Source of the DNA: Dictyostelium discoideum | Lineage: Eukaryota | Reading direction: 5' to 3' | Assembly: GCA_000004695.1 (NCBI GenBank) | Contig: CM000152.2 | Span: 4,800,001-4,864,000 of the forward strand | DNA: 64,000 nt | Shown: one piece after another, positions 13,922 through 16,440 of the stretch | Layout: each line of letters starts with the position of its first letter | How positions within the stretch are numbered: position 1 is the stretch's first letter | Notes under the pieces: generated by a model | Seen by the model: only the letters and a program-made list of their open reading frames with translations | What the model was told of the DNA's origin: nothing | The model's database searches: none | Program-made: the position numbers and the translations under genes

Positions 13922-16440
13922 TGAAACTTCAAATCAACCACCAAAAGAATTAAATAGAGATACAAAAGATCATCGTTGTGGTAATGATAGAGATCGTGAT
14001 AGTGGATCGTGATAGTAGAGATAGTTATAGAGATAGGGATAGGGATCGTGATAGTAGAGATAGAGATCGTGATAGAGATTACCGTGGTGATAGGGATAGG
14101 GATAGAGATAGAGAAAGAGATCGTGACAGAGATAGAGAAAGAGATCGTGATAGAGAAAGAGATCGTGGTGATAGAGACAGAGACAGAGACAGAGACAGAG
14201 AAAGAGAAAGAGATAGAGACAGAGACAGAGAAAGAGATAGAGATAGAGAAAGAGATAGAGATAGAGACAGAGAAAGAGAGAGAGATCGTGATAGAGACTA
14301 CAGAGATAGAGATAGAGATTATAGAGATAGAGATAGAGACAGAGACAGAGACAGAGACAGAGACAGAGATAGGGACAGGGATAGAGATAGATATTCATCC
14401 TCATCATCATCAGCAGCAACAATACCATCATCAACAACAACAACAAATACAAATAATGAGGCACTACCACCACCTTCATCATCATCTTCATCATCTAAAA
14501 AGAAAGCACCAAGAACAATTGACACATTAAAGGATGAATTTAAACAAATTCAAGAAGAAAGAGAAAAAGACAAAAAATCAACAACATCATCATCATCAAC
14601 ATCATTGTCATCATCATCAGTTGAAGAGGAAACAGATGAAGAATATTATACAACATTATTTTTGGGTACATTATCAGTTGAATCGAATGAACAAGTTATT
14701 GATGAATTGTTTTCAACCTATGGTATTATTAATTCAATTAAAATCATTACACCAAAGAATGAAGATGATCGAAAACGTGGTATAAACTATTGTGCAATTG
14801 TAACCTATCAATTCCCAAGAGATGCCCATAATGCAATGAAAGATTTAACAGGTAAAAAATTATTAGGTCGTGAATTAAGAATTGGTTGGGCTAAAATTCA
14901 AGTTAAACAACCAAGAAATAATGAAATTAATAATTTTAATAATTACAATAATAATAATAATTTTTTTAATAACTCACATGGAATGGGTAATAAAAATAAT
15001 AATGGTCCAATTAAAATTCAAGTTCAAATACCTCAAAATTTATTTATAAAGAGTATTATTGATAATTTAGCATATTATGTATCGAAAGAGGGTTATCCAT
15101 TTGAAAAGTTAATACAAGAAAGAGAATATTCAAATATGAATTTTCAATTTCTATTCGATCATCAATCTGATGATTATTATTATTATAGTTGGAAAGTTTA
15201 CTCGTTAATTAATGGTGATACTAAAACTAATTGGAAATTAAAACCAATTGAAATGATTAAAGATTATTTAATATTTATACCACCAACAATTGATGATCAA
15301 CAGCTACAACAACAACAACAACAACAACAACAACCACATATACAAAATCCATCAACTATAGCATCCAATAGTAATATTCAACAACAACCACTTCCAATTT
15401 CATTACGTGTAAAATTTGAAGAATATGTAAAGAATTTAACAGCACAACGTGAAAAAGTTTGTGAGTTAATGGTAATGTCAATTGATAATTCAGATTATAG
15501 TTCAGATATTGTTGATATTATAGTTGGTTCATTCTTTGATTCAATTAGTAATTTAAATGGAAAAGAAAGTATAAACTCAAAGATTTCAAAACTTTATTTA
15601 ATATCTGATATATTACACAATTGTACAGTAAATGTTAAAAATGTTTCTTCTTATCGTGGTTTGTAAGTTTTTTTTTTTTTTTTTTTTTTTTATTCATTTA
15701 TTTATATTATTATTAATTTATAATTTTCTTTTATAATTAGATTTGAAAATAAGTTGGCATTGGTATTCCAAAATTTAAGTTCAACATATAGATCTATTGG
15801 TGGAAGAGTTTCAGCTCAAAATTTTAAAGAAAAAATAACAAAAGTATTAAATAGTTGGGATAAATCATCATTATATTCAAAATCATTTTTATTAGGATTA
15901 AGATTCACTTTTTCAATTTATGTTAAACCAACAACAACAGCAACAACAACAACAACAACACAAAATCAAAATATTGAAGAGGATGATGATATTGATGGTA
16001 TTCCAATTAATAGTGTTAAAAATGATGAAAATACTAAAAATAAAATATCAATGTCAACTCAACAAATTGATTTATATTGTAAAAATAATGGATTGGTTAA
16101 ATGTGATACCATTGAAGATACAATGGATAAAATCGATCAGTTTAAAAAGTGTTTGGCTCAAGAATCAGAGAAAGAGGATAAATTGCTAGCACATCAATTA
16201 TCAAAAGATATTTTGGATTCAATAGAAGATGAAATTGAAACTTATAAAAAGAAATTATCAATTAGTTCAAATAATGACTCCTCCTTCTCTCAAGAAAAGG
16301 AAATTTTAATAAATGAATATAGAGCCACTTTAATAAAAGCTGCTGCTTCTCAAAAAATATCATCACTCAAAAGAGATTTTGAAGTTGGAAATAATATTAA
16401 TAATTCCAATCGACAAACTAAACAACAAAGATATCAATAA
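13506..16440 (+). CDS. U2 snRNP-associated SURP protein (U2SURP/SR140-like splicing factor) with RRM, SURP and CID domains and an RD/RE dipeptide-repeat region. Exons 13506..15662 and 15741..16440. A frameshift at 13992..14017 interrupts the first exon.
   Basis: N-terminus KVAILPFGMSEKKLAPSTMSK...KVYNDFLSEHENKPTDTPKFVKGGT aligns with human U2SURP [22 protein letters not shown]...[60 protein letters not shown]...NYCAIVTYQFPRDAHNAMKDLTGKKLLGRELRIGWAK. SURP: IIDNLAYYVSKEGYPFEKLIQERE...FQFLFD. CID: split by a GTAAGT..TTAG intron after ...VSSYRG(L). RD/RE repeat of ~130 residues. The two long ORFs, 13506..14012 and 13978..15666, are in different frames and are joined only by a 1-nt shift inside the RD repeat. 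Confidence 0.8.
13992..14017 (+). repeat. 13-bp tandem duplication (GATCGTGATAGTG / GATCGTGATAGTA) inside the RD-repeat region. It frameshifts the SR140-like gene.
   Basis: Direct reading. Removing either copy restores one continuous frame (...GNDRDRDS-RDSYRDRDRD...). Confidence 0.85.
14020..14400 (+). repeat. Hexamer-based coding repeat (AGAGAT/AGGGAT/AGAGAC/AGAGAA)n encoding about 130 residues of (RD)n/(RE)n.
   Basis: Direct reading. The antisense and shifted frames give the spurious ORFs 13970..14494(-), 14009..14530(+) and 14319..14525(-). Confidence 0.9.

Follow-up and report, generated by a model that had tools for sequence, protein, structure and literature searches.

An extra T in the RD repeat of a Dictyostelium U2SURP/SR140 ortholog is probably a sequence error

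The locus described here raises the question of whether a conserved splicing factor gene of Dictyostelium discoideum is truly disrupted and, if so, by what kind of event. It lies in a stretch of 64,000 nucleotides (contig CM000152.2 of assembly GCA_000004695.1), which is termed the window. All coordinates refer to the window, and all features of the gene lie on its forward (+) strand. The G+C content of the window is about 22%, its coding sequences contain poly-N and poly-Q tracts, and its introns are short and very rich in A+T, all as in D. discoideum. Within it, an open reading frame at 13506..14012 (168 aa, frame 0) overlaps another at 13978..15666 (562 aa, frame +1). The original prediction assigned both to one U2SURP/SR140-like gene and traced the change of frame to a near-perfect 13-bp tandem duplication. 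It offered three readings of the break: an assembly or sequencing slip, a strain-specific disabling lesion, or a site where translation tolerates a shift.

One gene in two reading frames

The two open reading frames are two frames of one gene, and in this respect the original prediction was confirmed. The best match among solved structures was human U2SURP (PDB 9r8v_SR, E=2.3e-57), and collinearity with it included the N-terminal ORF. Residues 64-213 of the query aligned with residues 90-224 of the human protein, the conserved N-terminal region facing human residues 90-150. The RRM aligned to residues 265-355, and the stretch comprising SURP and CID matched residues 417-710 with E=2e-45. With E=3e-10, the N-terminal ORF also matched an amoebozoan-like ortholog, P0005, at the N-terminus of the latter (LPxG..APSTM..Y.DF). 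The N-terminal region could be aligned with five orthologs, in which it is found in one chain with the RRM. The relatives retrieved from the databases are RRM-SURP-CID proteins, several of which are named U2 snRNP-associated SURP domain-containing protein. Judged from its sequence, the segment 13506..16440 is the Dictyostelium gene orthologous to U2SURP/SR140, a splicing factor associated with the U2 snRNP, and it is present in a single copy.

The gene starts with the ATG at 13506 (start codon context AAAAAAAAAATG), ends with a stop codon whose last base is 16440 and contains one intron. Its product is 951 aa long once a single base, T14003, is removed. The encoded features are, in this order, the N-terminal motif, a long RD/RE repeat, the RRM, SURP and CID domains and acidic DxDGxP motifs. 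The conserved N-terminal region (LPFG..APSTM..KVYNDFL..KFVKGG) is encoded in frame 0 at 13602..13854 and is supported by the ortholog and human alignments. The RRM domain is located at 14656..14880 (Pfam RRM_1, E=7.9e-10), the SURP module at 15049..15204 (Pfam Surp, E=2.8e-14, covering 52 of the 53 profile positions) and the CID domain at 15415..15891 (Pfam CID, E=2.3e-08). The latter is split by the intron at 15663..15740 (GTAAGT...TTAG), which is 78 nt long and consists of A+T to 93.6%. Across this intron the spliced query can be aligned with orthologs at 99% coverage, and it is the sole genuine intron of the gene. An RRM, a single SURP downstream of the RRM and a CID downstream of the SURP are thus all present. 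The N-terminal motif and the RRM belong to the same polypeptide as well: they are contiguous in the independent assembly L001 described below and lie in different frames in the window owing to T14003. With every defining feature that can be assessed from sequence in place, the gene is an unexceptional U2SURP/SR140 family member.

The acidic DIDGIPIN motif occurs twice, as an N-terminal EDDIDGIPIN (approximately 13560..13589) and at the usual C-terminal site (EDDDIDGIPINS, 15975..16010). An N-terminal copy, DVDGVPV, is present in ortholog P0005 too.

When the 168-aa N-terminal ORF was run against a protein database, no match at E<=0.001 was returned, and the same kind of search with the RRM-SURP-CID part yielded distant orthologs only, with identities of at most 48% and none from Dictyostelium. 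Exact look-ups gave no entry for the 168-aa ORF, the 560-aa downstream ORF, the 951-aa protein in its Cys and Ser forms or a model truncated to ATG13984, negatives that carry no weight, given that even the 951-aa product called in the independent assembly was missing from the collection. Scans of metagenome and viral sequences with a protein pattern and with exact junction patterns produced no matches, and the literature searched contained no publication dealing with U2SURP of Dictyostelium or with this frameshift.

The change of frame falls into the RD/RE dipeptide repeat array, which spans about 135 codons (13986..14394); its reading frame is 0 as far as 14003 and +1 from 14005 onwards. Tandem Repeats Finder reported arrays with periods of 6, 18 and 21 in 13998..14391. 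The phase of the GAT and CGT codons in the repeat is 0 up to 14003 and 1 from 14005 on, in agreement with the predicted location of the break inside the RD repeat. Repeated 10-mers form 721 pairs within the array, of which 28 have a spacing that is not divisible by three; all of these 28 straddle 14004 and all have spacings of 1 modulo 3. Together with the flip in codon phase, these straddling pairs indicate that the break is a +1 (or -2) indel in a coding repeat that was once continuous. In frame 0, a GAT CGT GAT sequence read out of phase gives a premature TGA at 14010..14012. Literal translation of the window would therefore end after 168 codons, upstream of the sole intron, and every recognisable domain would be lost. 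The approximately 780 codons downstream of the break are intact and match the other assembly perfectly.

Comparison with an independent assembly

The neighbouring single-exon Msh3 gene (window 6161..10447) led to a second, independent version of the locus on contig CM142509.1 of assembly GCA_054883475.1 (L001). All anchor proteins that had a match pointed to this one assembly, whereas those encoded at 26796-30839, 40109-44968, 45968-48064 and 57991-58413 had no match. Window 1..20499 and L001 are collinear, with an identity of 99.28%, and the spliced U2SURP-ortholog model has a unique match in L001. At L001 17333..20266, the gene is called as one product of 951 aa. Global alignment of the gene (2935 nt in the window, 2934 nt in L001) revealed two differences only, just one of which is an indel. 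This is the extra T at 14003, which changes an AGG arginine codon to AGTG and so moves the reading frame by +1. The other is located 26 nt upstream, where the window has T at 13977 (TGT, Cys) and L001 has A (AGT, Ser). Around T14003 the window reads GATAGTGGATCG and L001 reads GATAGGGATCG; the strings across the site are AGTGGATCG for the allele with the T and AGGGATCG for the allele without it. The L001 protein runs across the site as ...HRSGNDRDRDRDRDSRDSYRD..., and its RD repeat is seamless.

These data bear directly on the nature of the lesion. The window sequence 13992..14017 is GATCGTGATAGTG|GATCGTGATAGTA, and the two 13-mers are identical at 12 of 13 positions, so that the near-perfect 13-bp pair of the original prediction does exist in the letters. 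The exact repeat is the 12-mer GATCGTGATAGT, present at 13992..14003 and 14005..14016 with G14004 as spacer. The second copy is found in both assemblies, and the first reads GATCGTGATAGG in the intact allele. L001 accordingly holds both 12-nt units in frame, as GATCGTGATAGG|GATCGTGATAGT. Since both repeat units are present in the intact allele, the lesion is a single T inserted in an arginine codon (AGG) of the RD repeat. The inserted T turns the first unit into GATCGTGATAGT followed by G and thereby makes an in-frame, imperfect 12-bp pair mimic a 13-bp tandem repeat. The 12-mer is far more frequent than expected by chance: at no more than one mismatch, it has 8 matches in the window as compared with 0.05 expected, and 6 of these 8 are within the RD array, where a third exact copy is present at 14044 and three further copies have one mismatch.

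Replication slippage that duplicated 13 bp is thus a scarcely credible cause of the frameshift, even though the adjacent 13-mers agree at 12 of 13 positions and deletion of either reopens the frame. A tandem duplication as the frameshifting event calls for two identical adjacent copies, only one of which is present in the unmutated allele. Here, the 13-mers differ from each other, L001 has both units as an in-frame pair of 12+12 nt, and the difference between the alleles is 1 nt rather than 13. The intact allele would then have to lose exactly one base. The original prediction was correct in that deletion of one 13-mer copy opens the frame, but the deletion of a whole copy is not needed, since removal of a single base restores it equally. 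Likewise, the original prediction took the 13-bp unit for the sole discontinuity, which in mechanistic terms it is not; it is an in-frame imperfect 12-bp repeat as it appears after insertion of a T.

Altogether, 35 kb were compared, namely window 1..20499 and 49328..64000 against L001 and L003, of which about 21 kb are coding by estimate. T14003 is the sole coding indel in these 35 kb. The assemblies agree completely in Msh3 (1428 aa), in a RING protein (391 aa) and in a protein of 855 aa, from which it follows that the two genomes represent almost the same strain. The few clear coding differences are in repeats, and four of the five occur in close pairs (13977/14003 and 58109/58139), the fifth being at 62896. 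Approximately 40 indels separate the assemblies. All but one are extra bases in the window, mostly in A/T homopolymers and up to 28 nt long, and nearly all are differences in homopolymer length in intergenic or intronic sequence. Either GCA_054883475.1 shortens homopolymers systematically or the window lengthens them, and GCA_054883475.1 is not error-free either.

Several other sites are notable. The pair 58109/58139 lies in a gene for an RGG-repeat protein (140 aa, 57991..58413 on the minus strand), in which the window encodes GGFKGGRGG and GCA_054883475.1 encodes GGFRGGRGG at equivalent positions of adjacent units. Concerted change or gene conversion within a repeat could be the cause, or else an error of assembly or polishing that is related to the repeat and affects one of the two sequences. 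In the intergenic stretch 18823..19023, substitutions and small indels relative to L001 total about 11 within 200 nt, a density far higher than elsewhere; either one of the assemblies is of low quality here or the spot is hypervariable. An intron of a DAP3-like gene (50620..50670) contains a CCA repeat followed by a run of about 14 C, which is odd for a genome with 22% G+C, and the C-run differs by one C between the assemblies. The kinesin-like ORF 20091..22979 runs on through an apparent in-frame intron, so that mechanical ORF lists merge exons in this region.

Sequence error or real mutation

Three explanations have to be weighed for a single extra base at 14003. Of the readings offered originally, the assembly or sequencing slip is the one best supported. 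The extra T is probably a base-calling or consensus error of the source assembly at a repeat. As 13977 and 14003 are the only differences in a gene of 2.9 kb, a short stretch of poor sequence is suggested, and the T in place of A at 13977 is probably part of the same local error. The organism would then make the normal 951-aa protein. When AX4-derived lines were resequenced, they had in common 1916 of the 1917 candidate differences that set them apart from the D. discoideum reference as published, and the authors ascribed these to errors in the reference, to differences between it and their ancestor clone or to mutations acquired during growth for the starting lines (PMC3466296). The window itself is presumably a reference of the Sanger era. 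Assemblies for AX2-214 and wild isolates have also been deposited (Holland et al. 2025).

Alternatively, the T could be a real frameshift private to the sequenced laboratory clone, which would leave a 168-aa stub and hence a U2SURP null or severe hypomorph, while sister strains are intact. A stop codon upstream of the intron would plausibly expose the mRNA to nonsense-mediated decay. The window sequence as given does contain the T, and the other assembly shows the existence of an intact allele, not of an error in the window. Two more non-synonymous differences, the K/R exchanges at 58109 and 58139, could mean that some differences between the assemblies are real. Moreover, U2SURP may be dispensable in some eukaryotes, given that S. 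cerevisiae is not known to have it. We nevertheless consider a private mutation unlikely. Two changes 26 nt apart in an otherwise identical gene of 2.9 kb resemble local read trouble and not independent mutations; the approximately 780 downstream codons are still intact and the same as in the other assembly; there is no other coding indel in the 35 kb compared; and the measured mutation rate of 2.9e-11 per site per generation is extremely low (PMC3466296).

It is extremely improbable that the fault lies on the other side, i.e. that the 1-nt loss is an error in GCA_054883475.1 and that the frameshift is true in all strains and bypassed by an intron or by a +1 shift at UCG-UGA-U. The systematic shortening of homopolymers in L001 speaks for such an error, but T14003 is outside any homopolymer. 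Furthermore, it is highly improbable that the chance loss of one nucleotide would hit exactly the phase flip of the RD repeat and yield a perfect DRDRDRDRDS. The frame-0 sequence TCG TGA T (14007..14013) resembles the +1 frameshift site of antizyme, UCC UGA U; however, any GAT CGT GAT read out of phase gives TCG TGA T as a matter of course. The ORF is uninterrupted in a nearly identical genome, which means that there is no conserved site for programmed +1 frameshifting, and the tolerated shift put forward in the original prediction has no support. As to splicing, many formal GT..AG pairs could join the frames, and a genuine intron separating the ORFs had been named as a finding that would overturn the prediction. 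Four genuine introns nearby have lengths of 63-114 nt, 87-94% A+T and the donors GTAAGT or GTAAAT. In contrast, all GT..AG pairs that would correct the frame are located in sequence of coding character, and L001 has these bases as part of its ORF. The candidates that start from a GTAATG donor at 13981 are located inside the coding RD repeat and have an A+T content of only 59-61%, unlike the real introns, and the others would cut conserved N-terminal residues.

If the extra T is an error, as we consider probable, the source assembly needs removal of T14003 and probably a change of T to A at 13977, and truncated, split or false-intron gene models should give way to the 951-aa model. A sequenced clone that is a natural knock-out of U2SURP, or retains an N-terminal stub of it, with a sister strain that has kept the gene, is a doubtful alternative. 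Should the T be real, however, a widely used amoeba strain would be without a conserved U2-associated splicing factor, and this factor would be dispensable for growth of Dictyostelium. The defect could also lie hidden behind splicing differences among common laboratory strains, which would be of relevance for strain comparisons. Under either reading the sequence is explicable without new biology, and the finding is useful for the correction of sequence and annotation.

Relation to known proteins and known errors

The Dictyostelium protein shares with human U2SURP the YxxF..FVxGG and L.x.FK.ELKxIQEER motifs, the RRM, SURP and CID domains and the acidic DxDGxP repeats, all in the same order, at an identity of about 30%. 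It differs by an RD/RE array of approximately 135 residues that separates the N-terminal motif from the RRM, by an extra N-terminal DIDGIPI motif and by poly-N and poly-Q tracts. Fungal and amoebozoan orthologs (P0001, P0004, P0005, P0006 and P0012) likewise combine the N-terminal region with RRM-SURP-CID in one polypeptide. P0005 shares the LPxG..APSTM motif and reaches 48% identity over part of its length. None of these five orthologs, which are 27-31% identical to the Dictyostelium protein, has an RD array. The long array between N-terminal motif and RRM is the local peculiarity of this gene.

Human U2SURP instead carries a C-terminal arginine/serine-rich tail. The RD array may be functionally equivalent to an RS domain. 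It is reminiscent of the basic and acidic Arg-Asp repeats (RDR and RDRS) of DdNKAP, a different, splicing-related nuclear protein of the same organism (PMC5173251). The lesion itself can be likened to the one-base indel errors, or differences between clones, at coding repeats of draft genomes and Sanger references, with which it has in common an isolated insertion of one nucleotide in a repeat, a substitution nearby, the splitting of an otherwise perfectly conserved gene and an intact independent assembly.
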